Below are positions 1 to 61,274 of a stretch of DNA of 64,000 nt, in pieces. Positions within the stretch are counted from its first letter, which is position 1, and each line of letters starts with the position of its first letter. This DNA comes from a virus (taxonomy: Duplodnaviria; Heunggongvirae; Uroviricota; Caudoviricetes). Where the stretch lies: the IMG/VR virus record IMGVR_UViG_3300032116_000040, positions 58,085 through 122,084 of that record; one strand, given 5' to 3'. The notes below the pieces were generated by a model. It searched no databases and was not told the origin of the DNA. It saw nothing but the letters and a program-made list of their open reading frames with translations. Made by a program: the position numbers and the translations under genes.

Positions 1-252
1 CTGTCTCTTTTCAATGGCTAATCTTTGAAAGTGATTTATTGCAGGGTTGTAGTATTTCATTAGGACCTGATCAACGTAAGTTATTTCACCTGATTTTTTA
101 AAGTACTTAAACTGATCGTCCGTCGTCTTTTTTAGACCAAAGAACGCACCGTCCATTTTTTCGTTGATTATAACGTAACCGTTAAGCAATCCATTTAAAA
201 AGTCTTCTCCCCTTTTTTCATAGATCTCCTTTAAATTGTTTATTCCTGCCAT
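1..252 (-). CDS. N-terminal fragment of a putative ATP-dependent polynucleotide (DNA/RNA) ligase-like protein; the rest lies beyond the left window edge
   Basis: Minus-strand ORF with ATG at about 250-252 that runs off the window. Translation MAGINNLKEIYEKRGEDFLNGLLNGYVIINEKMDGAFFGLKK... carries a K-x-D-G nucleotidyltransferase motif I about 30 aa from the N-terminus, as in minimal ligases (cf. T4 Rnl2 EKIHGTNF). Not in the ORF track because it is truncated. Confidence 0.3.
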   Translation of the reverse strand, partial: MAGINNLKEIYEKRGEDFLNGLLNGYVIINEKMDGAFFGLKKTTDDQFKYFKKSGEITYVDQVLMKYYNPAINHFQRLAIEKRQ

Positions 253-269
253 GTAATTAGCCTTTAGAT

Positions 270-833
270 TTATACTTCAACTTGCGATGATCCTGGTTTT
301 TCTTCAGCTGACGCTTCCCTAGTGGACTCAGCAGGCTTTTCTTCTGGTTTTGGAGCAGACATCGCTTTTCTAATGCTTATTGAATCGATACTAATCGAGA
401 TGCTTCTCAAGTTATCTGAATCCTCTGGGTTAGCCGTGAAATATTCGACAACTTTTTTCAAATTAACGTTATTCATCTCTTCTCCGAATCCTCCGGCATC
501 CTCTATCTTTTGTCTTAAGTTTTTAGCCGCTTTCCAAGTTCCGCCATAACTTAGGGACCAGCAATAGAACCTAACCTGCTCGTTTTTACTATTATAATAG
601 TGCACAATATCCTTAATTCTTTGAATGGCTCCGTTTGCATCTCTGTATGTTGTTGCTCGACCTAAGTTATCAGAAGGAACTCCAAATCTTACTTGATCTG
701 AAAGAACTTCCATTAGTTCTCCGATCCTAGTGATTAACTGATCTGAAGGATATCCCTTTAACGGAGAATTCGCCTCAGCCTCTTCTGCTTCCTTAATGTA
801 TTGTAAATAGCCTAGTGTATATTTGGTAGCCAT
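270..833 (-). CDS. hypothetical protein (187 aa), same operon as the kinase/phosphatase genes
   Basis: ORF track. ATAAATAA-type motif 16 nt upstream of the ATG. Confidence 0.5.
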   Translation of the reverse strand: MATKYTLGYLQYIKEAEEAEANSPLKGYPSDQLITRIGELMEVLSDQVRFGVPSDNLGRATTYRDANGAIQRIKDIVHYYNSKNEQVRFYCWSLSYGGTWKAAKNLRQKIEDAGGFGEEMNNVNLKKVVEYFTANPEDSDNLRSISISIDSISIRKAMSAPKPEEKPAESTREASAEEKPGSSQVEV

Positions 834-841
834 CCTAAAAT

Positions 842-860
842 ATTTTTTATTATTTATTAA
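842..860 (-). promoter_or_regulatory. late-promoter-like AATAAATAATAAAAAA motif upstream of 270..833
   Basis: The minus strand reads ...AATAAATAATAAAAAATATTTTAGG-ATG. It belongs to a motif family that recurs 16-20 nt upstream of many start codons in the window (see findings). Confidence 0.45.
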
Positions 861-862
861 GA

Positions 863-1462
863 TTATTTCCCGTTATTTATTAGACTGCTTAGTATTTGAT
901 TGAATTCATTACTGCTTTCATTGTTAAAGTGATTTATCACCCTTACAAAATCGTTATTTCTGCTTGAATCTGAGATCTCATATCTAAATTCTGAGAATAT
1001 TCTCTCAAAAAGTTCCTTTTCACGATTTACATTTTCAAAGTTACCAAAATAGTCCTTGTCCCTTTTAGTAATTTCAATATCCTCATCGCGTTCAACATAT
1101 AGGATTTTACTATTTTGATAAAGATTGCTGATCAAGATCTTTTGAAACTCGCTAAGCAATCTAAATTGATTCATTCTTTCTCGGTATATCGACCAGACGT
1201 ATGCTGAAAATATGCATCTATCAAAGATTAAGATGTGATCCTTCAGCAAAGTCTCATTTAGCTCAAGAATGGTAAGCACATTTGCAATGCTAAAATAGTG
1301 TACTCCTGGGCCAGATTCCTGATCTCGCATTCCAAGATCATCGATATGCTTAGCAAATTGAAACTTATAATAGTGAACATTTGGATTAGTGTTCTGTTCA
1401 AAGAACCTATCGATTAGGAATGTTTTGCCACTATGTCGGTGGCCCTCGATCATAATTATCAT
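863..1462 (-). CDS. P-loop kinase; candidate polynucleotide kinase (Pnk kinase-domain-like)
   Basis: Walker A GHRHSGKT near the N-terminus. A 4-nt ATGA overlap couples it to the upstream HAD phosphatase gene. Confidence 0.45.
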   Translation of the reverse strand: MIIMIEGHRHSGKTFLIDRFFEQNTNPNVHYYKFQFAKHIDDLGMRDQESGPGVHYFSIANVLTILELNETLLKDHILIFDRCIFSAYVWSIYRERMNQFRLLSEFQKILISNLYQNSKILYVERDEDIEITKRDKDYFGNFENVNREKELFERIFSEFRYEISDSSRNNDFVRVINHFNNESSNEFNQILSSLINNGK

Positions 1463-2049
1463 ATCAATTCAATTCTTCTTGGATGACCTGCACTAAAATC
1501 GTAAAGTGCTATTACTTTAGACTTATCGACAAATTGCATGTCTAGGGTGATTAGATCGCTTAGGCTAGTAAAGGATCGGTGTATCTTACGAGTATATTCA
1601 TAAAAGAACTCCTGATATTTCCTTAGCTGTTCTAGCGAATCTTCATATACTACTATATCTTTTACGTTAGGTAAACGAATAAGTTCTTTTTCAAGAATAG
1701 AAATCTTTTCACAAAGCCGACCTAGGAAATAACTTGTATCAAAGGTTATTCCATGCTTGTCCAATAGCTTTTCTGCACAGGGTCTAAGCTCTTCAGTTCT
1801 GTGAGTTATCAAGATCGTTCGTGTATTTGGATCCTGTGAAGCCTTTTTCCAATCTTCATACACAGTTCCGATCAGCTGAATGTTATGAATCTCTGGATCC
1901 ATTGAGGTGGGGTGATCGTAAAACGAATAAGGGGTTGGAAAATTAAGCTCAGGGTGTAATCTTTCTACTGAAAACCTATCAGTATATCCTGGCATTCTAA
2001 ACATAGTCTCATCAAAATCAAAGACTACTAGTCGAGTTATATCTTTCAT
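1459..2049 (-). CDS. HAD-family phosphatase resembling the 3'-phosphatase domain of T4 polynucleotide kinase
   Basis: DxDxT motif VVFDFDETMF near the N-terminus. A second HAD motif ILITHRTE (cf. T4 Pnk VIFDVDGTLA / VVVSGRES). Confidence 0.5.
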   Translation of the reverse strand: MKDITRLVVFDFDETMFRMPGYTDRFSVERLHPELNFPTPYSFYDHPTSMDPEIHNIQLIGTVYEDWKKASQDPNTRTILITHRTEELRPCAEKLLDKHGITFDTSYFLGRLCEKISILEKELIRLPNVKDIVVYEDSLEQLRKYQEFFYEYTRKIHRSFTSLSDLITLDMQFVDKSKVIALYDFSAGHPRRIELI

Positions 2050-6622: not shown

Positions 6623-8056
6623 ATGGAAAACAAAGAAAAACAAATTAAAAAATTAGACCTTAAACAGAATGCGATTAAGATCTTAATTAACTCTATTTAT
6701 GGTGCCTTTGGAAACAAGTGGTTCTATTTTTACAATCCAGATATTGCGCAGTCCATCACTTTACAGGGACAGGATCTAATTAAGTTTTCAATTAAAGCAG
6801 TAAATCACTATTTTTTAGAAAAATGGCATCTTGATACTGAGTTACATCAAAAATTAGGAATCGATGGATATACTATTAATAAGATAGAAGACGAGGCTGC
6901 GATCTACACAGATACTGATTCAATCTATGTCCAGTTTGACTCTGCACTTGACTCAATAGTAGGGGCTAGCTTTACAAAAGACGAAGCATTGAATATATGT
7001 ATCAACATCGATCGATATCGACTCTCTAATTACTTTGATATTTGTTTTGAAAAATATGGGCGTCTGTTTAATACTAAGAATCGACTTAAGTTCAAATTAG
7101 AAAACCTTTCTGAGACTGGAATCTGGCTTAAAAAGAAGAACTATGCCATTCGAGTCGCATACGAACCCAATCCAAACTATGAGCTTGAGCCTCAACAAAA
7201 AAGGTATCTAATAATCAAGGGTCTTGAACCAGTAAAAGGATCATATCCAATCTGGGCTAGAGAAAAGCTAATCGATCTCACGTCTTTCATTATGGATCGA
7301 GGTAAACGTCTTGATATTGAAAAAGATATCGTGCCTCGACTTACTGCTCTTAAAAATGAAGCTCTTTCCCTGCATCCTGACGATCTTGCATTTAACTTTA
7401 ATATCAGAATATACAATAAATACGTTGCTAGTGAAGAGAGATTGGAACTTAAAAAAGGAATTTCCATCTTCCCTAGGGCAGCCGCCATCTATAATCACAT
7501 CCTGATCAAGACGGGACTTGTTGAAAAATACCCTAAGATTAGAGAAAAGGACAAGATCAAGTTTTATTATTGCAATCCTGAAACAAATGATGGAGGTCAC
7601 GACGTCTTTGCATATTCTCCTGGAACATATCCGGATGAAATCGCTCTGCTGATGGATATCGATGCTCAATTCTTTTCGCTAATAGTCGAACCTGTCAATC
7701 GTCTTCTTACTGCAATGAAGATGAGTTCGCTCGATATCAATCTAAAAAGGTCAGTCGATGTCGTCACAGTAAAGAGCAAAAAGGTTTTAACTGATGCTGA
7801 GATTTATCCTTTATACATCGTTGATCAAGAGACATTGGAATACGTTGAGGTTCCAGAGAAATTTTGGAAGATGATCGGTAACCCCGATGCTGAAATTCCA
7901 GAAGAAGATTTTCAAGAATATTTGGGAGTCATCACACGATATGGTCTAAACACAACGATTGTGCCCAAGCCGGAACTAGATAAGTACTTGAAGAGAATGA
8001 CTAAGAAAAAGGAGAAAAATAATCCTGTTCTTGAATTAGAGGAAGAAAATGATTAA
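6623..8056 (+). CDS. 43: family B DNA polymerase, C-terminal (palm/fingers/thumb) segment only; gp43B-like split polymerase
   Basis: KILINSIYGAFGN (KxxxNSxYG motif B) and AIYTDTDSIYV (YGDTDS motif C), close to T4 gp43 KIMLNSLYGALGN / YGDTDS. The ORF starts just before motif B. No exonuclease or motif A region lies upstream. Confidence 0.8.
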   Translation: MENKEKQIKKLDLKQNAIKILINSIYGAFGNKWFYFYNPDIAQSITLQGQDLIKFSIKAVNHYFLEKWHLDTELHQKLGIDGYTINKIEDEAAIYTDTDSIYVQFDSALDSIVGASFTKDEALNICINIDRYRLSNYFDICFEKYGRLFNTKNRLKFKLENLSETGIWLKKKNYAIRVAYEPNPNYELEPQQKRYLIIKGLEPVKGSYPIWAREKLIDLTSFIMDRGKRLDIEKDIVPRLTALKNEALSLHPDDLAFNFNIRIYNKYVASEERLELKKGISIFPRAAAIYNHILIKTGLVEKYPKIREKDKIKFYYCNPETNDGGHDVFAYSPGTYPDEIALLMDIDAQFFSLIVEPVNRLLTAMKMSSLDINLKRSVDVVTVKSKKVLTDAEIYPLYIVDQETLEYVEVPEKFWKMIGNPDAEIPEEDFQEYLGVITRYGLNTTIVPKPELDKYLKRMTKKKEKNNPVLELEEEND

Positions 8057-9185
8057 CCTATTGACTGGATACAACATACACCAATTCATAAAAGATCTCT
8101 TAAAAAAGAGGTTTCCCGAAGATCGATTTAAGCAAGAAGTATACGAGTCTGGCGATAAAATTAATTTTGCTTGTCCATATTGCGGAGACTCCAAATCCGA
8201 TTCTCGAAAAAAGAGAGGAAACTTATATCCTGATCGTAGCTTCTATAAGTGTTATAATGATGGTTGTGGAGTAAAGGTAGATCTCACTAAGTTTATTTCA
8301 AAGTTTTCTCTTAAATATTCGTTGGGTGTTCCTGACATAAAGTCTCCTGAAGTAAAATGGACTCCTCAGACGACTAGGAAGAAGAGAGGCTCGCTCATAG
8401 AATTTTTAATTAGTAAGAACGTCGGTGACCACCTGCTAAGAATAGATGCAATGGTTGACCGTTTTTCGCTGTCTCCGTGCTGTGAGGCTGATGCTGACTC
8501 AAGAGTCGGCTCCTTCATCCGAAATCGAAGCCTGCTAGACCTTCCTCTTTTTAATGAGTGTGCATACTTTGACTCTCGAGACGATAAGATCTATTTATTT
8601 AATATTGATCTCAAGTCAGGTAAGGTCCTAGGATTCGCGATACGTCGAATCGGAGAAGATGTAATTGGACCAAAATACCTGATTAAAAACTACTCTGAAC
8701 TAAAGAAGAACGGTCTTGTTCGAAACGTTGAAGACGATATCGTTTCTGATATCGATTCGATCAACAACTATTTTAATGTGCTAAATGTCGATTTCTCAAA
8801 ACCCATTCTAGTGACTGAGGGCCAGATTGATGCGATGTTTTTAAATAACTCGATTGCAACGACTGGCATCTCCAAGAGCAAGCTGTTACTTGAAAACCTA
8901 TTAAGTAAATCAAATACTTTGATCCTATTTGATAGTGATGTTGCGGGTAAGACACAATCGGTCGACTTGATTAAAAAGGGATATCGAGTATTTTTATGGA
9001 ATAAGATGATGGCAGATCTTCGAAAAAAGTACAATGCGGATTATCGGAACGTTAGACTCATTAAGGATGTGAATGACCTATATTCGTTCATGCTTAAGCA
9101 CGATAGCTCCCTCACGTTCGACTCCTTCAATGCAACAGTTTTACAATACTTTTCTGAATCTCCATTAGATTTGCTCTATGTTTAA
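8049..9185 (+). CDS. 61: DNA primase, gp61/DnaG-like (zinc ribbon + Toprim)
   Basis: FACPYCGDSKSD...YKCYNDGCG matches T4 gp61 FRCPVCGDSKTD...CYNCNY. Toprim ILVTEGQIDAM and LILFDSDVAG. 8-nt overlap with the polymerase gene. Confidence 0.75.
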   Translation: MINLLTGYNIHQFIKDLLKKRFPEDRFKQEVYESGDKINFACPYCGDSKSDSRKKRGNLYPDRSFYKCYNDGCGVKVDLTKFISKFSLKYSLGVPDIKSPEVKWTPQTTRKKRGSLIEFLISKNVGDHLLRIDAMVDRFSLSPCCEADADSRVGSFIRNRSLLDLPLFNECAYFDSRDDKIYLFNIDLKSGKVLGFAIRRIGEDVIGPKYLIKNYSELKKNGLVRNVEDDIVSDIDSINNYFNVLNVDFSKPILVTEGQIDAMFLNNSIATTGISKSKLLLENLLSKSNTLILFDSDVAGKTQSVDLIKKGYRVFLWNKMMADLRKKYNADYRNVRLIKDVNDLYSFMLKHDSSLTFDSFNATVLQYFSESPLDLLYV

Positions 9186-31325: not shown

Positions 31326-31562
31326 ATGAAAAATGAAAAGAAGTTAAGTCTTAAAATTGGTCCTTGGGGCGTGGTCGCTCTGACGATCGCCTACATCGCG
31401 ATCATGAATCTCTACTTTGAGTACTGCATCAGTAGAGAGTTTGATCCCATTTTGCAAATGGTATCCACCCTAATTGCAATCTATTATACTTGGTGGCAAA
31501 TTAAATTGATCGTGAATACGATCATCAATTACATAACTAATAAAATAAAAAAAGAAGAATGA
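31326..31562 (+). CDS. small two-TM membrane protein (78 aa), translationally coupled to the SPFH gene
   Basis: Two hydrophobic helices. ATGA overlap with the next gene. Confidence 0.45.
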   Translation: MKNEKKLSLKIGPWGVVALTIAYIAIMNLYFEYCISREFDPILQMVSTLIAIYYTWWQIKLIVNTIINYITNKIKKEE

Positions 31563-32461
31563 TTTCAGGTATCTTAATCGCGATTTTTATAATCGTAGCG
31601 ATCGTTAAAGTGGTGATCGCAAAAAATAATGATGACGAACGAGGATTCATCACAGGAATAATAATAGGAGTAGTTGGAATCGTGATCGGGGTCGTTCAGC
31701 CGTTTGCACTAGAAAGAGTCGATGCGGGTCACGTTGGGATCAAAGTTAATCTGACCGGCGATAATCGAGGAGTTTCTAATTACGAATACAAGACTGGATG
31801 GGTGATGTATAACACTTGGGTTGAGCAGCTCCTAGAGTTCCCAACATATCAGCAACACATCGAATACAAGGACCAGACAGTTATCACTAAGGGTGGGTTC
31901 GCAGCTTCAATCAAACCAAGCTTTAACTATTCGCTTAAGCCAAATGCAATAGGAAACATGTTTGAAAACCTACGATTAGACATAAAACAAATTGAGCAGG
32001 GCTGGTTAATGAACGCTATCGTTTCTTCAGTAAATGACGTCGCTAATAAGTGGGAAGTCGACGCGATATTCAATAATCGTGAGCAGTTTGAGGCGGCTAT
32101 CGTTGCTGAGTGTAATAAGAGGCTCTCTAAATGGTTCACTGTTTCTCAGTTAAGAACTAATATCACTCCGCCAACCGCACTTCAACAGGCCATTGAATCT
32201 AAAACTAAGGCTGTTCAGGAAGCGCAAGCTGCGATGCAAAGAAAGCTTGTAGCAGAAGCTGAAGCTCAAGAAAAAATTGCAATCGCAAAGGGTGACTCAG
32301 CTAAGGCGATCATCGACGCCCAAGCTACCGCTCTATCGATCAAGCTTAAGCAGCAAGAATTGAGTCCAGCCTATATCGAATACATTAAATGGACTAGTTG
32401 GAATGGTCAGCTTCCTACAACAATGACCGGAAACACAGGAACTCTATTAAACATAAAATAA
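31559..32461 (+). CDS. SPFH/band-7 (stomatin/prohibitin/HflK-like) membrane protein
   Basis: N-terminal TM. GHVGIKVNLTGD and a coiled-coil AQAAMQRKLVAEAEAQEKIAIAKGDSAKAIIDAQA typical of SPFH proteins. Confidence 0.65.
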   Translation: MISGILIAIFIIVAIVKVVIAKNNDDERGFITGIIIGVVGIVIGVVQPFALERVDAGHVGIKVNLTGDNRGVSNYEYKTGWVMYNTWVEQLLEFPTYQQHIEYKDQTVITKGGFAASIKPSFNYSLKPNAIGNMFENLRLDIKQIEQGWLMNAIVSSVNDVANKWEVDAIFNNREQFEAAIVAECNKRLSKWFTVSQLRTNITPPTALQQAIESKTKAVQEAQAAMQRKLVAEAEAQEKIAIAKGDSAKAIIDAQATALSIKLKQQELSPAYIEYIKWTSWNGQLPTTMTGNTGTLLNIK

Positions 32462-32912: not shown

Positions 32913-33235
32913 TCTCTAAACTTTCCTGGAAAAAGCATTCTCCATTCATGTCCGTGAGGAATGTCCTTCGCTCGTACTCCAAATATCTTTTTTTCGGGTT
33001 GTTCGCAAGGATCTTCTCCGTTCCATTTAAACCCATTTCGACAGGCCCAATTTTTCATAAATGGTTTCTGTAGAGGCTGACCTGTCACGAATGGAAATCT
33101 GACACCTGCTTCGTTATCGATCTCTTCAATCTTGCCGTGTTTTACCTTGATCTCAATCGTTCTTCCCATTCTTGACTTAAGAGTGATCTCCTCCTCTCGC
33201 TGCCAACTTTCAAATAACTGAATGTACTTTTTCAT
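32909..33235 (-). CDS. small protein (108 aa) of unknown function, last gene of the cyclase-patatin operon
   Basis: Its start overlaps the patatin stop. N-terminus MKKYIQLFESWQREEE. Confidence 0.45.
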   Translation of the reverse strand: MKKYIQLFESWQREEEITLKSRMGRTIEIKVKHGKIEEIDNEAGVRFPFVTGQPLQKPFMKNWACRNGFKWNGEDPCEQPEKKIFGVRAKDIPHGHEWRMLFPGKFRD

Positions 33236-34194
33236 TAATTAAAAAACTTTTGTAATTTTTCCATCTCGTCAGGATTAGTTAGTATCTGTGAATATACTCT
33301 TTCTATCAAATATTTATAGGTTGCTGGTCTAGAATCAGCCATGTCGCTCTTTTTTTCATCGTCGATTGACACTTGAAAACGTAGGTGTTTTTTCAATATC
33401 TCATCACACTCGTATGTGACCGCTTTTGCTGATGCTTGCATCATGATAGAGGTGATCGGCTTTATCCAGTTTATTGCTCCCCAACCAGTTGTTTTTTCAT
33501 CTAAACTTTCTGAATATATTCCAGTACCTAGTGAAAGACACTCGATATTGCTTATATCAACGTCTGGTCGGCTACGTAAGACGTCAGCTACTGCTGCCAT
33601 CGCTGGATTATTAATGTACACTCCGCCGTCTACTAATAGACGACTCTTAGCTTTAAAATCCATCTCGTATGAAGGAAGATATGTGGGAGCAGCAGAAGTT
33701 GCTCTACATATTTCTTTTAACTTAGCGTTATATTCAGGTCCAGCGCTAGCTAGCCTGCTTTTAAACATTACTACCTCGTTGTTTTTAATGTCATACGAAC
33801 TTACAATGATGGGTTTTAAAGTATCCTTTAGTGTAGAATCTGAAAAATATTCACCCAATAGCCTGTCTAATCCATCAGGAGAAAACTTTGGATTAAATAT
33901 CGAGTTTATTCCAGTTATTGCTTTTGAAAATATGTTTCTCTTATATGGAAATATCTCAGTTCCCTTGTCAGTATATAGGGATATTAACTGGTCTAGGCTA
34001 ACTGCTGGCTTTTTTCCGTCTTTCGTATAGGTCAATCCGCAGGCTATTATTCCACCAGTCGAGGTTCCAGCAATGACATCAAAAAGCTCATGGATGAGTT
34101 TACCTTGGGTCTTTTCAATCTCCTTTAATATCAAGAGGGGAATTATTCCACGAAGACCTCCTCCGTCTAGTGACAGTATTCTAATTTTTTCCAT
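33235..34194 (-). CDS. patatin-like phospholipase
   Basis: LSLDGGGLRG (oxyanion GGGxR/KG), AGTSTGG (GxSxG nucleophile), LVDGGVYINNP (DGG catalytic Asp). Confidence 0.8.
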   Translation of the reverse strand: MEKIRILSLDGGGLRGIIPLLILKEIEKTQGKLIHELFDVIAGTSTGGIIACGLTYTKDGKKPAVSLDQLISLYTDKGTEIFPYKRNIFSKAITGINSIFNPKFSPDGLDRLLGEYFSDSTLKDTLKPIIVSSYDIKNNEVVMFKSRLASAGPEYNAKLKEICRATSAAPTYLPSYEMDFKAKSRLLVDGGVYINNPAMAAVADVLRSRPDVDISNIECLSLGTGIYSESLDEKTTGWGAINWIKPITSIMMQASAKAVTYECDEILKKHLRFQVSIDDEKKSDMADSRPATYKYLIERVYSQILTNPDEMEKLQKFFN

Positions 34195-52994: not shown

Positions 52995-53894
52995 ATGAGC
53001 ATATCTAAACTAAACTTAACAAATCCGATGGATTCGGATGTAAAATTCAAGATCTCTCGGTTTCCTGATGGACAACAAACTGTAGATATCGAATCTGCAC
53101 CAATGTATATCAATGGATTAGATGTTAAGATCTATTCTCGAATGAATTCTTTTCGTGATATCGAATTGATTATTGCTGCCAATCAAGCTCTTAGAGAAAT
53201 GGCGGTAGGAACCGTTACCTTATATGTTCCTTATTTCTTGGGTGCACGCTCGGATCGTAAATTTCAACAAGGAGGAACCAATTACTTAAAGCAAGTGATT
53301 TGTCCAATCATCAATGCACAAAAATTCGATTGTGTAATTGTTTTAGATCCACACTCAGATGTACTCGAAGCTTGCTTAAATAACTTCGGAAAGATTGATA
53401 ACCATACAATCGTTAAGTATGCTCTTACAAATATCGATAATCGAAACGCCGCTCGAGACAGAATCTGTTTAGTTTCACCGGACGGCGGTGCTCTAAAGAA
53501 AATCTATGACATCGCACACGAGTTTCAAATTCATCATCTTGTCACGGCAATGAAACACCGCGACATTCAAACTGGAAAAATCAATCATACTGAAGTTCCG
53601 ACCTTGCCAGCTTCTCTTGATGGTGAAAAAATGAAATATGTTATAGTTGATGATATCTGTGATGGAGGTAGAACATTCACTGAATTGGCAAAAGCAATTC
53701 ATGCCCAGCAGCCGGAAGCTAAACTTTACTTAATCGTAACACATGGAATCTTTTCTGCAGGATTTGAAGATCTGAGCAAGTACTTTACTAAGATTTACAC
53801 ATCCAATTCTGTAAAAGATATCATGAATGAAAATGATGATACTGATGCAGAAAGAGCTGCAAAACAAATCGTAACACAATTTAACGTATTCTAA
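52995..53894 (+). CDS. ribose-phosphate pyrophosphokinase (PRPP synthetase) family protein; candidate ADP-ribose pyrophosphokinase of a phage NAD+ reconstitution pathway
   Basis: KFKISRFPDGQQTVDIE, YVPYFLGARSDRKF, LDPHSD and the PRPP-binding loop YVIVDDICDGGRTF parallel E. coli Prs (GRFSDGEVSVQI, IPYFGYARQDRR, VDLHA, VLVDDMIDTGGT). Confidence 0.75.
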   Translation: MSISKLNLTNPMDSDVKFKISRFPDGQQTVDIESAPMYINGLDVKIYSRMNSFRDIELIIAANQALREMAVGTVTLYVPYFLGARSDRKFQQGGTNYLKQVICPIINAQKFDCVIVLDPHSDVLEACLNNFGKIDNHTIVKYALTNIDNRNAARDRICLVSPDGGALKKIYDIAHEFQIHHLVTAMKHRDIQTGKINHTEVPTLPASLDGEKMKYVIVDDICDGGRTFTELAKAIHAQQPEAKLYLIVTHGIFSAGFEDLSKYFTKIYTSNSVKDIMNENDDTDAERAAKQIVTQFNVF

Positions 53895-54370
53895 TGAAGA
53901 TAATCAAACCTCCACACTCAATATCGAAAAACTACGATAGACGAACCAAAAGAGTGTTTTTAGCCGGCACGATAGAGATGGGAAACTCCCATGACTGGCA
54001 GAGCCAGGTGGAAGAGGCTCTCATTAATACTGAGTGCACGATATTAAATCCACGTAGAGAGGCATGGGATTCAAGTTGGGAACAGAGGATCGAGAGTCCT
54101 CAATTCTATCAGCAAGTCAATTGGGAACTGGATGCTCTTAATAAATCCGATCTGATCATCCTGAACCTCCTGCCTGACTCCAAATCACCTATCTCTCTTC
54201 TTGAATTAGGATTATACGCTAGTAGTGGAAAATTACTGGTATGCTGCCCAGATGGATTCTGGAGAAAAGGCAACGTTGAGATCGTGTGTGAGAGATACGA
54301 CATTCCACTATACGAAAGCCTAGCCGATCTTTTAAATTCACTTACGATAAATCAAGCTATAATAATATGA
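53894..54370 (+). CDS. nucleoside 2-deoxyribosyltransferase / Rcl (DNPH1) / LOG-like N-glycosidase superfamily protein
   Basis: N-terminal RVFLAGTIE (LAG motif) and SLLELGLYASSGK (catalytic Glu context) in a protein of about 158 aa. Translationally coupled on both sides. Confidence 0.45.
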   Translation: MKIIKPPHSISKNYDRRTKRVFLAGTIEMGNSHDWQSQVEEALINTECTILNPRREAWDSSWEQRIESPQFYQQVNWELDALNKSDLIILNLLPDSKSPISLLELGLYASSGKLLVCCPDGFWRKGNVEIVCERYDIPLYESLADLLNSLTINQAIII

Positions 54371-54543
54371 AAGAACAAAAATTTTTAATCATTGATGATG
54401 CATCTGAAGTAAATTCATACTTACGTGATGGATGGGAAGTAATTTCGGTAACAGCACAACATGTTGCAGCCGCAGGATCACATAGCTGGTCAGAAAAACT
54501 TGAAGGTAAATTTGCAGTAGTAATCGAAAAACAAAAACAATAA
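54367..54543 (+). CDS. small protein (58 aa) between the Rcl-like and NAMPT-like genes
   Basis: ATGA overlap with the upstream gene. Ends 3 nt before the NAMPT ATG. Confidence 0.35.
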   Translation: MKEQKFLIIDDASEVNSYLRDGWEVISVTAQHVAAAGSHSWSEKLEGKFAVVIEKQKQ

Positions 54544-54545
54544 AT

Positions 54546-56051
54546 ATGAATCCATTATTATTAACTGATGGTTATAAAACATCGCATAATAGACAGTATC
54601 CAGAAGGAACTACTCTAGTCTATTCAAACTTTACACCACGATCTAACAAGTACGCACCGAAAGGATGTGACGAAGTAGTAGTGTTTGGAACACAGATGGT
54701 CATGATTCAGCTTCACGAGATGTTTCAAAAAGATTTCTTTGATAAACCAAAAGATGATGTGTGTCGTGAAATGAAACAAGAATTGTCAATGTATTTGGGA
54801 ACAGAATATGACGTTTCTCACTTTGAAAAGCTACACGACTTGGGTCACTTGCCGATCCATGTTAAATCTCTACCTGAAGGAACCAAGGCACCGATTAAAG
54901 TTCCGGTACTTACGATCTATAACACGCATCCTGATTTCTATTGGATAACAAATTACTTGGAAACGATCCTTTCAAACCTATTGTGGAAACCAATGACATC
55001 AGCAACAATTGCTCATCAGTACAGAAAAGTATTGACCGAGTGGATGTTAAAGACAGATAAGGGCAATGCTTCATTCATTGACTGGCAAGGTCATGACTTC
55101 TCAATGAGAGGAATGGACTCAGTAGAAGCGGTAATTAGTTCTGGCTTGGGCCACTTAACATCATTCTGGGGCACCGATTCATTACCAACAATCTATGGTG
55201 CTCGTAAATACTATGGTGAAGAAGGTTTCTTTTGCGGATCAGTTCCTGCCACTGAACACTCAGTTATGTGTGCAGGTGGAAAAGAGGACGAAGTTGAGAC
55301 ATTCCGCAGATTGTTGAAGACATATCCTACCGGAATCCTTTCAGTTGTATCTGATACTTGGGATTTATTTAAAGTGTGTACAGAACACGTAGTTACTTTG
55401 AAAGAAGAGATCATGTCTCGTGACGGTAAGTTAGTTATTCGCCCTGACTCAGGAGATCCCGTTGATATTCTTTGTGGTAATACATTTACAAAACATGGTG
55501 AATATGTAGGAAAAGGCACATCATTTTATATCGAATCTACGGATGACACGCCTGACGCAAAGGGAGTAATTGAATTACTTTGGGATGTATTCGGTGGAAC
55601 TATCAATGAACAAGGTTACAAAGTTCTTGATTCACACATCGGAGCTATCTATGGTGACTCAATCACGATTGACAGAGCAAACGAAATCTGTAAGCGTTTA
55701 GAAGCAAAAGGGTTTGCATCAACAAACGTAGTGTTAGGTATTGGATCATTCACATATCAATACAATACCAGAGATACATTTGGTTTCGCAATGAAAGCAA
55801 CTTATGTTGAGGTAAATGGTGTTGGTAGAGAAATCTTTAAGGATCCGATTACTGATGATGGTACAAAGAAATCTGCAACAGGTTTATTAAGTGTTCACAA
55901 TCATGATGGTAAATATGTTTTAGTTGATCGTTGTACTTGGGAAGGTGAAGAAGTTAGTTCACTCCAAACCATTTATGAAGATGGTGAATTTGGTGTATTT
56001 TCAACTTTAACTGAAATTAGAGCTCGTTTAAAAGATGATAAGAAACTTTAG
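54546..56051 (+). CDS. nadV: nicotinamide phosphoribosyltransferase (NAMPT/NadV) family protein; candidate nicotinamide ADPR transferase
   Basis: MNPLLLTDGYKTSHNRQYPEGT N-terminus typical of NAMPT. 501 aa. GTDS and other family blocks present. Confidence 0.8.
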   Translation: MNPLLLTDGYKTSHNRQYPEGTTLVYSNFTPRSNKYAPKGCDEVVVFGTQMVMIQLHEMFQKDFFDKPKDDVCREMKQELSMYLGTEYDVSHFEKLHDLGHLPIHVKSLPEGTKAPIKVPVLTIYNTHPDFYWITNYLETILSNLLWKPMTSATIAHQYRKVLTEWMLKTDKGNASFIDWQGHDFSMRGMDSVEAVISSGLGHLTSFWGTDSLPTIYGARKYYGEEGFFCGSVPATEHSVMCAGGKEDEVETFRRLLKTYPTGILSVVSDTWDLFKVCTEHVVTLKEEIMSRDGKLVIRPDSGDPVDILCGNTFTKHGEYVGKGTSFYIESTDDTPDAKGVIELLWDVFGGTINEQGYKVLDSHIGAIYGDSITIDRANEICKRLEAKGFASTNVVLGIGSFTYQYNTRDTFGFAMKATYVEVNGVGREIFKDPITDDGTKKSATGLLSVHNHDGKYVLVDRCTWEGEEVSSLQTIYEDGEFGVFSTLTEIRARLKDDKKL

Positions 56052-57797: not shown

Positions 57798-58163
57798 ATG
57801 AATAATGAAAAGATAATTGAGTACATTGAGAAAAACCCTCAGATTCTACCCGGTAAGACTCGAGCTCAAACTTATGCAAGATACTATCTATTTAGCTTAT
57901 TACGCGAGTCCGGTCTGACCTATGTTCAAATAGGTGATATCTTAAATAAGAACCACTCAACTGTGATCCACGGCATACGGCTACACGATATCTTTGAACA
58001 GGCAGGCGATCGCATCTATCTTGACAATATTAATCATTTACGTATCCTATTTAAGGAGCCACTCAGCGAACTGAATCTAGAACAGGATATCTTAAACTGT
58101 ACTAACTTACGGAGCCTTGGAATAATCAAAGCTAGAATACGGGCTGGCTCATATAGTAGATAA
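57798..58163 (+). CDS. DnaA domain IV-like helix-turn-helix DNA-binding protein
   Basis: LTYVQIGDILNKNHSTVIHGIRLHD resembles the DnaA C-terminal signature (IAKEFGKRDHTTVLHACRKIE). Confidence 0.45.
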   Translation: MNNEKIIEYIEKNPQILPGKTRAQTYARYYLFSLLRESGLTYVQIGDILNKNHSTVIHGIRLHDIFEQAGDRIYLDNINHLRILFKEPLSELNLEQDILNCTNLRSLGIIKARIRAGSYSR

Positions 58164-59188: not shown

Positions 59189-59617
59189 ATGGAAAAAGAA
59201 TTTATACCTTATGAGCTGGCTTTAAGAATGAAAGGACTTGTGTTTGATGAAAGATGCTTTAGGTATGAGGCAGTTAAAAAGATTTGTGAAAATCAGGCAC
59301 AGCCTGGAGGATGTCAATTACCTAATGTACATTGCGCATATCCTGGTTGTACTATTGATCGCAGCGTTGAGTCGTTACCTATCCCTGTTTGGCAACAAGC
59401 GTTTAGGTGGTTTAGAGAGAAGAATTTTCACGTTAATATAGATTCATATCACAGCTTAAGTAAGAATAAGCCTTTTGGATTATCGATTGATTATTTACAC
59501 GAATCTGGAAAATTGGATTATGTTGATTACAGAGATGATGAGGATTTTGAAACCTATGAAGAGGCACAAAAAAGAGCAATTGAAATTATTATTGAACTTT
59601 TAGAACGAAAGAAATAG
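59189..59617 (+). CDS. hypothetical protein, tandem paralog A
   Basis: Shares (F/V)xYELAxx(K/M)xLxF...(Q/S)QAFRWFR(E/D) with 59622..60041. Confidence 0.45.
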   Translation: MEKEFIPYELALRMKGLVFDERCFRYEAVKKICENQAQPGGCQLPNVHCAYPGCTIDRSVESLPIPVWQQAFRWFREKNFHVNIDSYHSLSKNKPFGLSIDYLHESGKLDYVDYRDDEDFETYEEAQKRAIEIIIELLERKK

Positions 59618-59621
59618 AACA

Positions 59622-60041
59622 ATGAAAGATTTTGTATCATATGAATTAGCAGTCAAGCTTAAAACATTAGGATTCAATTTGCCATGTTACATGTACATCT
59701 ATACAGGAGATACTGGTAATAATTATGATCATTACTTGGAAGTAAAACCTAGTGATTCAAAGGATTGGAATGGTAAGTCTGACTTATGTGTTTCCCGTCC
59801 AACCTTCTCACAAGCATTTAGATGGTTTAGAGATAACTACAACTTATTCTGCGAAATAAACGTAGATAAGACAATGGAACCTAAGTTTGCTTTTACCATA
59901 AAAGAGTATGAGTCAGATCAGTTCCTTGAGGGATTTGGAGAAGACGTCTTGTCTGAGTATTTGTATTATAAGCATGAAGAAGCAGAACTTGCTTGTCTCC
60001 AAAAACTCGTTGAGATTGTCGAAGAAAATAAATTAGCATAA
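59622..60041 (+). CDS. hypothetical protein, tandem paralog B
   Basis: See paralog A. Confidence 0.45.
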   Translation: MKDFVSYELAVKLKTLGFNLPCYMYIYTGDTGNNYDHYLEVKPSDSKDWNGKSDLCVSRPTFSQAFRWFRDNYNLFCEINVDKTMEPKFAFTIKEYESDQFLEGFGEDVLSEYLYYKHEEAELACLQKLVEIVEENKLA

Positions 60042-60341: not shown

Positions 60342-60437
60342 TGCTTCAGTCTAAGTTTTTCACGAGAGATCTTTACATTTACTTATAATTAAAAACCTAA
60401 ACCCATGAAAAATCATCATTAATAAAAACAAATAAAA

Positions 60438-61274
60438 ATGACCGATCAATTAGGCGACAGAATGAAGGACTTTTACGAAGACCGAACACGTTACAAGTTG
60501 GCACGTCGCACCAACACAATCATCCGCATCGACGGAAAAGCTTTCCATACTTATACTCGAGGACTTAAGCGTCCATTCGATGAAGGGTTAATGGAAGACA
60601 TGAACAAGACAACTGAGTACCTATGTCAGAATATCCAAGGTGCAAAATTTGGATACGTTCAATCAGATGAGATTTCAATTCTCATCACTGATTACGATGA
60701 CATTTCTACACATGCTTGGTTTGATGGTAACTTGCAGAAAATGGCAAGTATCGCTGCTTCATTGGCAACTGCAAAGTTTAACCAACTAAGAACACTAAGA
60801 AGAATGGAAGAACTTCATGATTACGAAATCATGAGCGTAGTGGAAGAAACTAAACTTGCAATGTTCGATGCTCGAGTATTTCAAATTCCTTACCAAGAGG
60901 AAGTGATTAATTACTTTATTTGGAGACAACAAGATGCTACAAGAAATTCTATTTCTTCTGTTGCTCAAGCTTACTTCTCCTCAAAGGAATTACATGGAAA
61001 GAAAACCAATGAAATGCAAGACATGCTGATGTTGGAAAAAGGAATCAATTGGAATGATTTTACCCCAAGAGAAAAACGAGGATCTCTTATCCGTAAAGTA
61101 GAAAAGACTTATGTGAAATTACAATCTGGACAAACAGTTCAAGTAAATCCTTCCCAAGTAGATCCTAGATTAAACGAAACATTCTCAAGAAACAAATGGG
61201 AAGCTGATAAAGAAACCCCAATCTTTTCGCAAGATAAATGTTATCTTCGTGAGTTAATGCCAAACCACAATTAG
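60438..61274 (+). CDS. Thg1-like protein (tRNA-His guanylyltransferase family 3'-5' nucleotidyltransferase)
   Basis: TIIRIDGKAFHTY, FGYVQSDEISILI and NLQKMASIAASLATAKF align with the Thg1 blocks VVVRLDGRNFHRF, IAYGQSDEYSFVF and FKRRASKFMTHVASQFAS. Confidence 0.65.
   Translation: MTDQLGDRMKDFYEDRTRYKLARRTNTIIRIDGKAFHTYTRGLKRPFDEGLMEDMNKTTEYLCQNIQGAKFGYVQSDEISILITDYDDISTHAWFDGNLQKMASIAASLATAKFNQLRTLRRMEELHDYEIMSVVEETKLAMFDARVFQIPYQEEVINYFIWRQQDATRNSISSVAQAYFSSKELHGKKTNEMQDMLMLEKGINWNDFTPREKRGSLIRKVEKTYVKLQSGQTVQVNPSQVDPRLNETFSRNKWEADKETPIFSQDKCYLRELMPNHN

Follow-up and report, generated by a model that had tools for sequence, protein, structure and literature searches.

The stretch of DNA analysed here, called the window below, comprises 64,000 nucleotides of a tailed-phage genome of the Caudoviricetes (IMG/VR record IMGVR_UViG_3300032116_000040, positions 58,085 to 122,084). 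Towards its right end lies a gene for a Thg1-like protein (TLP), a bacterial-type 3'-5' nucleotidyltransferase. To our knowledge, no polymerases other than the Thg1-like enzymes build nucleic acid from 3' to 5'. The gene is a single uninterrupted reading frame of 278 codons, with an ATG start and a TAG stop, and is free of frameshifts and truncations. The start codon is consistent with the homologues, which open MKDxLGDRMK. The gene and the parts of it that are discussed below are as follows, with residues numbered in amino acids (aa).

60438..61274, + strand: coding sequence of the TLP, bacterial-type 3'-5' nucleotidyltransferase, 278 aa and stop (Pfam, PHROG, PDB, AlphaFold/Foldseek)
60525..60548, + strand: RIDGKAFH block, aa 30-37, with R30, D32 and H37 unchanged throughout 26 phage homologues
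60654..60677, + strand: YVQSDEIS block, aa 73-80; Q75, S76, D77, E78, I79 and S80 are invariant
60729..60764, + strand: NLQKMASIAASL helix, aa 98-109, which holds K101
60789..60851, + strand: hypervariable surface loop 1, aa ~118-138, longer than in the Bacillus thuringiensis TLP and helical in the model
60924..60956, + strand: RQQDATRNSIS, the TLP-type segment at the position of the eukaryotic HINNLYN motif; R163, Q164, D166 and N170 are invariant
61098..61187, + strand: hypervariable loop 2, aa ~221-250, in the C-terminal domain; a beta-hairpin extension ~21 aa longer than in the Bacillus thuringiensis TLP

The Thg1-family assignment, which an earlier note had made from three motif blocks in the sequence, is borne out, and all three blocks are found at the positions given above. 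In Pfam, the Thg1 profile (PF04446) is matched over positions 2-130 of 130, far more strongly than chance would allow (E 3.9e-28; 98.4 bits, gathering cut-off 29.2). The Thg1C profile (PF14413) scores 20.1 bits, under its cut-off of 26.3, and the alignment with the B. thuringiensis protein (BtTLP) extends to residue 273. The whole protein matches PHROG 4717, ‘tRNA-His guanylyltransferase’, with an E-value of 1.3e-92. Among the PDB entries, BtTLP (4kgk/4kgm) is the top match by far (4kgk, E 2.9e-66), and the eukaryotic Thg1 and archaeal TLP structures rank next, with E-values of 1e-6 to 6e-10.

The predicted structure tells the same story. An AlphaFold model built with 34 homologues as input has a mean predicted local distance difference test (pLDDT) of 78.8 and a predicted template-modelling score (pTM) of 0.79. 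In this monomer, only the first 22 residues are poorly predicted, which would fit a contact between them and a second subunit; the Thg1/TLP family forms homotetramers whose active sites are shared between subunits. In a Foldseek search with the model, the top 32 PDB matches are all Thg1 or TLP chains. The best of them is again BtTLP (4kgm/4kgk; E 5e-21, 42-46% identity, target-normalised template-modelling score 0.77), and the alignment runs over ~270 columns, including the C-terminal tRNA-binding domain. The protein gave no match in an NCBIfam search; a PADLOC search gave none either, placing it outside the known defence-system models.

Functional residues were transferred from the structure paper of BtTLP (PMC3701042) via the alignment of the two proteins in the PDB search, and their conservation was scored in an alignment of 26 phage homologues, with identities down to 43%. 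R30, D32 and H37 of the phage protein correspond to R28, D30 and H35 of BtTLP, which provide a contact with the nucleoside triphosphate (NTP), the first metal-binding carboxylate and a contact with the ribose 3'-OH, respectively. D77 and E78 (D75 and E76 in BtTLP) supply the second and third of the catalytic carboxylates, while K101 is the equivalent of K99, a lysine through which the adjacent subunit touches the triphosphate of the incoming NTP. Further, E14, R18, R146 and R163 are the counterparts of E12, R16, R131 and R147. All ten of these mapped residues are invariant in the 26 phage homologues. The three conserved carboxylates of the Thg1 family are D29, D76 and E77 in the human enzyme and D30, D75 and E76 in BtTLP; all three are thus present in the phage protein. 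Both grounds on which the earlier note would have dropped the assignment, a missing Thg1 match and missing carboxylates, therefore fall away. Hypervariability in the phage clade is limited to loops 1 and 2, and the length of loop 1 differs by ~0-30 residues among relatives.

A few positions depart from the BtTLP pattern. The phage protein is 33 aa longer, with insertions at aa ~118-138 and 221-250. M158 of BtTLP, an asparagine in the eukaryotes, is S174. The lysine of the activation step (K43 in BtTLP, K44 in the human enzyme) is replaced by R45, with K44 beside it. In BtTLP, K43 positions ATP during activation and matters for ATP-dependent activation, while it is dispensable for the GTP-dependent one (PMC3701042). 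The replacement therefore argues for a difference in detail and not for a lost function.

The type of TLP can be read from the segment around R163. At the same alignment position, BtTLP has RQQDASKNSIS, Candida Thg1 has RQVDCHINNLYN and the phage protein has RQQDATRNSIS. The eukaryote-specific HINNLYN motif, which holds a histidine (H154) that stacks on the anticodon of tRNA-His (PMC6471195), is absent from the phage protein in this alignment. The absence of the motif, together with a segment nearly identical to that of BtTLP, makes the protein a bacterial-type TLP rather than a Thg1 proper. Its palm-plus-fingers fold and two-metal active site are also those of the eukaryotic Thg1 of yeast, human and Candida, and the three steps of its predicted chemistry would be the same, but the protein is only ~20% identical to them (E 1e-6 to 1e-10). 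As it lacks both HINNLYN and the anticodon-reading histidine, non-templated addition of G-1 opposite A73 is not expected of it. With BtTLP, on the other hand, it has the carboxylate triad, the NTP-contacting arginines and lysine and the RQQDA(S/T)(K/R)NSIS segment in common, and templated repair of 5' ends would be expected of it by homology. BtTLP itself adds nucleotides only opposite a Watson-Crick template; it is able to add G-1 opposite C73 but favours 5'-truncated tRNAs of any identity over this reaction by 5-160 fold (PMC3061083). The gene product is a TLP of the bacterial type with a conserved active site and, very probably, a working 3'-5' nucleotidyltransferase that depends on a template.

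The window belongs to a T4-like jumbo phage of ~248 kb. It encodes a T4-type portal (gp20 family, E 2e-61), a UvsW-like helicase, PhoH and a family B DNA polymerase, which place it in a T4-like myovirus, along with NAMPT and a ribose-phosphate diphosphokinase-like protein. An identical TLP is found on 12 metagenome contigs, the longest of 248 kb. In a database clustered at 90% identity, over 120 protein clusters match it at 73-100% identity, on contigs of up to 317 kb, and the IMG/VR relatives whose TLPs are 74-80% identical lie on contigs of 248-290 kb. In the collection of GenBank phages, no TLP homologue exceeds 60% identity, and a megablast of the window DNA against the same collection returned no near-identical match.

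Homologues are present in 164 of the 50,697 GenBank phage records, mostly those of Bacillus, Prevotella, Caulobacter, Mycobacterium, Erwinia, Brevundimonas, Vibrio and Aeromonas phages, and are usually annotated already. The view of the earlier note that such genes are uncommon in phages thus holds roughly in numbers, but they are well documented. The homologue of Pseudomonas phage 201phi2-1 was noted in 2010 (PMC2904730), that of Bacillus phage Bc431v3 was called ‘highly unusual’ in 2013 (PMC3601020), and by 2021 Thg1 homologues were listed as sporadic in jumbo phages (PMC7824862). The proteins of Bacillus phages Eldridge, BM15 and Bc431v3 (gp143) and of Pseudomonas phage 201phi2-1 form one family with the present TLP, PHROG 4717, and the Bacillus phage homologues are 47-50% identical to it. 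The annotated phage ‘tRNA-His guanylyltransferases’ are likewise found in large, often tRNA-rich phages, with a function that has been inferred (PMC3601020, PMC6292376, PMC2904730, PMC7824862). Unlike these isolates, the copy described here comes from an uncultured freshwater lineage of T4-like jumbo phages.

The closest cellular homologues are TLPs from Bacteroidota assemblies (53-57% identity), and those of Paenibacillus are ~47% identical. The comparison with bacterial TLPs that the earlier note had suggested was made as a rough neighbour-joining tree without support values, in which the protein falls within a phage clade, with the Bacteroidota as its neighbours and the Bacillales, BtTLP among them, in a separate group. 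It was also observed that the best ‘cellular’ match (54% identity) lies on a contig of 425 kb (L041, JBBACR010000001.1) labelled as a Pacearchaeota metagenome-assembled genome (MAG), and that several other top cellular matches are small MAG contigs. Some of these ‘cellular’ matches may be mis-binned phage DNA.

Within the window, the TLP gene is the final gene of a long rightward block, which also includes a gene resembling those of phosphoribosyl pyrophosphate (PRPP) synthetases, a nucleoside deoxyribosyltransferase-like gene and NAMPT.

52995-53894, + strand: ribose-phosphate diphosphokinase-like (PRPP-synthetase-like) gene
53894-54370, + strand: nucleoside deoxyribosyltransferase-like gene
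54546-56051, + strand: NAMPT
60342..60437, + strand: A+T-rich spacer of 96 nt, 5' of the TLP gene, covered by the promoter scan

The scan for promoters and terminators around the TLP gene gave site counts no higher than those in shuffled sequence, with no convincing promoter. The region 52995-56051 (+) amounts to a NAD+ salvage set. Its NAMPT and PRPP-synthetase-like genes lie 4-7 kb upstream of the TLP gene here, and they adjoin it in three more distant relatives (L010, L013 and L015). A short way upstream of the TLP gene is a paralogous pair of open reading frames (ORFs) on the + strand (59189-59617 and 59622-60041; 142 and 139 aa), both with an AFRWFR motif, which belong to phrog_25117 and phrog_12005, families without known function.

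At the far left of the window, on the opposite strand, lies a block of four genes which the earlier note had taken for a ‘Pnk/ligase operon’ and had combined with the TLP.

1459..2049, - strand: HAD-family phosphatase of the RNA-repair type (HAD_SAK_1), first gene of the block; PF10307, 31.8 bits (cut-off 25.6)
863..1462, - strand: P-loop kinase with a 4-nt overlap with the HAD gene, of uncertain family, resembling deoxynucleoside kinases (dNK) and thymidylate kinases (TMPK) and not T4 Pnk
270..833, - strand: conserved protein without assigned function, third gene of the block
1..252, - strand: initial 84 codons of the gene for a 624-aa protein, which runs over the window edge and is continued at L027:2516-4390, with an RNA-ligase-like N-terminus and a domain like NMN adenylyltransferases (NMNAT)

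The HAD gene also matches phrog_415, ‘polynucleotide kinase’, weakly. In a profile search with the kinase, deoxynucleoside and thymidylate kinases are matched rather than T4 Pnk. The 624-aa protein carries a KxDG-type motif, EKMDG, in its RNA-ligase-like N-terminal domain. PF09414 scores 23 bits on it, under the cut-off of 27, and is matched by 14 of its 22 homologues (best E-value 7e-6). All 22 homologues match PF01467, the HIGH-type, NMN adenylyltransferase-like nucleotidyltransferase family. A profile search of the PDB detected the NMNAT-like C-terminal domain alone, and weakly; it is from Pfam only that the protein may be called a candidate RNA ligase. The fusion of an RNA ligase to an NMN-adenylyltransferase-like domain is unusual, and it could link RNA repair with the supply of NAD+.

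The order of the four genes is kept in 26-31 of 37 related loci, beside UvsW and PhoH, and in none of these loci was a TLP gene found within 10 kb of the block. The block, being conserved without the TLP, is thus a stable feature of the lineage, whereas the TLP gene is an accessory gene sited elsewhere. To read the block as a Pnk/ligase repair cassette is plausible, though the reading is not a firm one: a four-gene block does exist at 1..2049 (-), and the identity of its genes has moderate support, with a dNK/TMPK-like kinase and a ligase match below threshold. The tie between this block and the TLP is weak, as the two are 58 kb apart on opposite strands and relatives keep the block without a nearby TLP. 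The TLP gene of the window is therefore not physically linked to kinase, phosphatase or ligase genes.

Two further features of the window touch neither the TLP nor this block. The family B DNA polymerase is apparently split into two ORFs on the + strand with an 8-nt overlap (6623-8056, 477 aa; 8049-9185, 378 aa, no Pfam match), and the same split is called in metagenome contig L026. Further, genes for an SPFH/Band 7 protein and a patatin-like phospholipase lie near each other (31559-32461, +, and 33235-34194, -); both are unusual auxiliary genes for a T4-like phage.

The neighbourhoods of the TLP gene in relatives were examined in 19 non-redundant IMG/VR loci, each covering the gene and 10 kb on either side. 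Four kinds of neighbour recur.

HAD_SAK_2 phosphatase beside the TLP gene: L006 (39 nt downstream), L007 (0.9 kb downstream), L011/L012 (just upstream)
RNA ligase of the PHA02142 or T4 Rnl1 type, 0.5-9 kb from the TLP gene: L012, L017, L019, L021 and L024
CCA-adding-type nucleotidyltransferase near the TLP gene: L010, L021 and L022
tRNA arrays near the TLP gene: L010 (12 genes), L013 (4), L020 (30), L023 (6) and L025 (17, with a tmRNA gene)

At least one of these links is present in about two-thirds of the loci. The arrays of two TLP-bearing jumbo-phage contigs also hold tRNAs that have a CUA anticodon and are labelled ‘Pyl’ by ARAGORN (L013:18546-18619, L013:20592-20665 and L020:11304-11380). 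These are likely amber suppressors, and their presence hints at recoding of TAG in the two phages.

The tRNA genes themselves inform the question of the substrate. All 13 tRNA-His genes in the retrieved phage loci encode both G-1 and C73, and two of them lie in TLP-adjacent arrays (L010 and L020). Bacteria ordinarily encode G-1 opposite C73 in this way, and their RNase P does not remove the G-1. An enzyme devoted to adding G-1 is thus not needed, though a templated enzyme could restore a G-1 that has been lost. Non-templated addition of G-1 was rejected in view of the missing HINNLYN motif and of the encoded G-1 and C73 in all 13 genes. Editing of tRNA 5' ends of the kind seen in amoebozoan mitochondria finds no support either, for in ~300 tRNAs drawn from the phage tRNA arrays of the retrieved loci, some of them beside TLP genes, the acceptor pairs 1:72 to 3:70 are almost free of mismatches. 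Exceptions come from initiator tRNA, where C1xA72 is normal, and from a handful of questionable predictions. An exact 25-mer scan of IMG/VR for tRNA-His, a pattern that proved too specific, matched 11 contigs, none of them L006-L008. In many related arrays, the phage tRNA-His genes (L030-L039 and L020/L040; for example, L031:1396-1467) retain G-1 and C73 but have a U-U mismatch at 4:69, 5:68 or both, which may reflect either stems that are genuinely weakened or genes in decay.

Taken with the homology to BtTLP, these observations lead us to propose that the TLP serves in the repair or maintenance of tRNA 5' ends during infection, a role to which we give a probability of about 0.55-0.6. We infer the chemistry, the tRNA substrate and any anti-immunity role, the mechanism being modelled on BtTLP. 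The enzyme would activate a 5'-monophosphate RNA end with ATP or GTP, or take a 5'-triphosphate end directly. Two Mg2+ ions would be held by D32 and D77, and the 3'-OH of the incoming NTP would attack the activated 5' end. The chain would grow 3' to 5' by one nucleotide at a time, with the 3' strand of the acceptor stem of the tRNA as its template. The TLP would thus restore the lost 5' nucleotides of host or phage tRNAs, including a templated G-1 opposite C73 of tRNA-His. It may act alongside the 3'-end (CCA) and break-sealing (ligase) enzymes common in phages of such size, as an accessory part of a tRNA-maintenance and RNA-repair toolkit that would sustain translation when tRNAs are mis-processed or damaged by nucleases. 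A comparable end-healing and sealing set that keeps tRNAs usable is encoded by phage T4, whose Pnk and Rnl1 have possible parallels in the HAD phosphatase, kinase and RNA-ligase-like genes of the window. The T4 pathway, however, ligates breaks in the anticodon loop and has no TLP, whereas the TLP would refill a lost 5' segment by templated synthesis and is unlinked to the healing and sealing genes of its own window.

A role in the repair or maintenance of tRNAs was proposed for phage TLPs in earlier comparative work (PMC2904730, PMC7824862). The same suggestion in the earlier note agrees with these papers and is supported by the neighbourhoods of the relatives; its weak point is the link to the four-gene block. 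The association with tRNA arrays, CCA-adding enzymes, RNA ligases and HAD_SAK phosphatases is circumstantial support for tRNA maintenance. In the TLP loci, 74 tRNA genes were counted in 353 kb (2.1 per 10 kb) against 8 in 715 kb of portal loci (0.11 per 10 kb), a crude control, because the structural module is a poor site for tRNA genes and the two sets of phages differ; the loci around PhoH, taken as a second control, come from the same genomic region as the portal loci and are not independent of them, so that their use was confined to demonstrating the conservation of the four-gene block.

That crudeness is one of several points that weigh against the proposed role. Synteny around the TLP gene is lost even between TLPs that are 74-80% identical. 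In the window, its direct neighbours are small ORFs of no assigned function in a variable region, and no tRNA gene is present in the 64 kb or in the 7.4 kb past the right end (L002). At the level of the protein, the position of R45 varies (K, R, S or I) across the phage homologues. Literature searches found no paper that tests a phage TLP experimentally, and none that describes a defence nuclease trimming the 5' ends of tRNAs. As we know of no defence nuclease that removes 5' nucleotides from tRNAs, the source of such damage is hypothetical.

Other roles have to be considered for the same protein. It could be dedicated to the maturation of tRNA-His, adding G-1 opposite C73 to phage or host tRNAs that have lost it or never received it, which would matter if RNase P cut the phage pre-tRNA-His at +1 instead of -1. 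Every phage annotation uses this family name, BtTLP does catalyse the reaction (PMC3061083), tRNA-His genes occur in the TLP-adjacent arrays of L010 and L020, and the C73 seen in all tRNA-His genes could template it. Nevertheless, we hold it unlikely, since G-1 is already encoded in all 13 genes and the normal pathway needs no addition, and three of the five TLP-adjacent arrays of at least four genes (L013, L023 and L025) are without tRNA-His in the sequence analysed. The anticodon-contacting H154 is missing along with HINNLYN (PMC6471195), and the 5-160 fold preference of BtTLP is for truncated tRNAs of any identity (PMC3061083).

That the enzyme acts on something other than tRNA appears quite improbable to us. 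Here the TLP would extend or repair the 5' ends of other phage or host RNAs, for instance, after a kinase has acted on a 5'-OH; in a less likely variant, it would make a nucleotide product, as in the distant GGDEF and Cas10 relatives of its palm domain. Roles beyond tRNA are reported for one Dictyostelium TLP (PMC5041481), and the palm domain of Thg1 is common to GGDEF proteins and CRISPR polymerases (PMC2904730). Foldseek also returned weak structural matches to Cas10/Csm and GGDEF proteins, and the recurrent adjacency of NAMPT and PRPP-synthetase-like genes (L010, L013, L015 and the window) is unexplained. However, all the residues of BtTLP for templated addition are retained, the C-terminal tRNA-binding domain appears to be so as well, and the neighbourhood signal consists mainly of tRNA genes and of enzymes that heal the ends of tRNA and other RNA. 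The gene might also be passenger DNA, recently acquired from a bacterial host and without a role in infection; its variable surroundings, whose genes differ between close relatives, and the Bacteroidota TLPs as nearest cellular homologues would fit such an origin. This is very improbable for a protein that keeps 73-100% identity over >120 clusters, whose catalytic residues are all invariant with changes limited to two loops, and which forms a phage clade of its own in the tree with an intact reading frame.

Returning to the repair or maintenance of tRNA 5' ends, a bolder and rather doubtful extension of it can be put forward. The phage TLP, together with a kinase and a HAD_SAK phosphatase, might make up an undescribed ‘refill’ branch of tRNA repair, which would answer an undiscovered defence that targets the 5' ends of tRNAs. 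A nuclease of the host or of a rival phage would strip 5' nucleotides from the acceptor stem, the kinase would phosphorylate the resulting 5'-OH, and the TLP would resynthesise the lost segment against the 3' strand. If this is true, the TLP would count as a counter-defence gene, and a new class of immunity directed at tRNAs would be expected to exist.

Phage TLPs have been annotated since 2010, and as an annotation, the gene repeats what the databases and comparative papers already hold. What is new is the confirmation, at the level of residues, that it is of the templated bacterial type, the lack of conservation of the activation lysine in the phage clade and the pattern of the neighbourhoods. 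The clade is abundant and strongly conserved in uncultured freshwater T4-like jumbo phages. Were its role in tRNA maintenance to be shown, a step that refills 5' ends would be added to the tRNA-repair repertoire of phages, and it would hint at a matching kind of tRNA damage.

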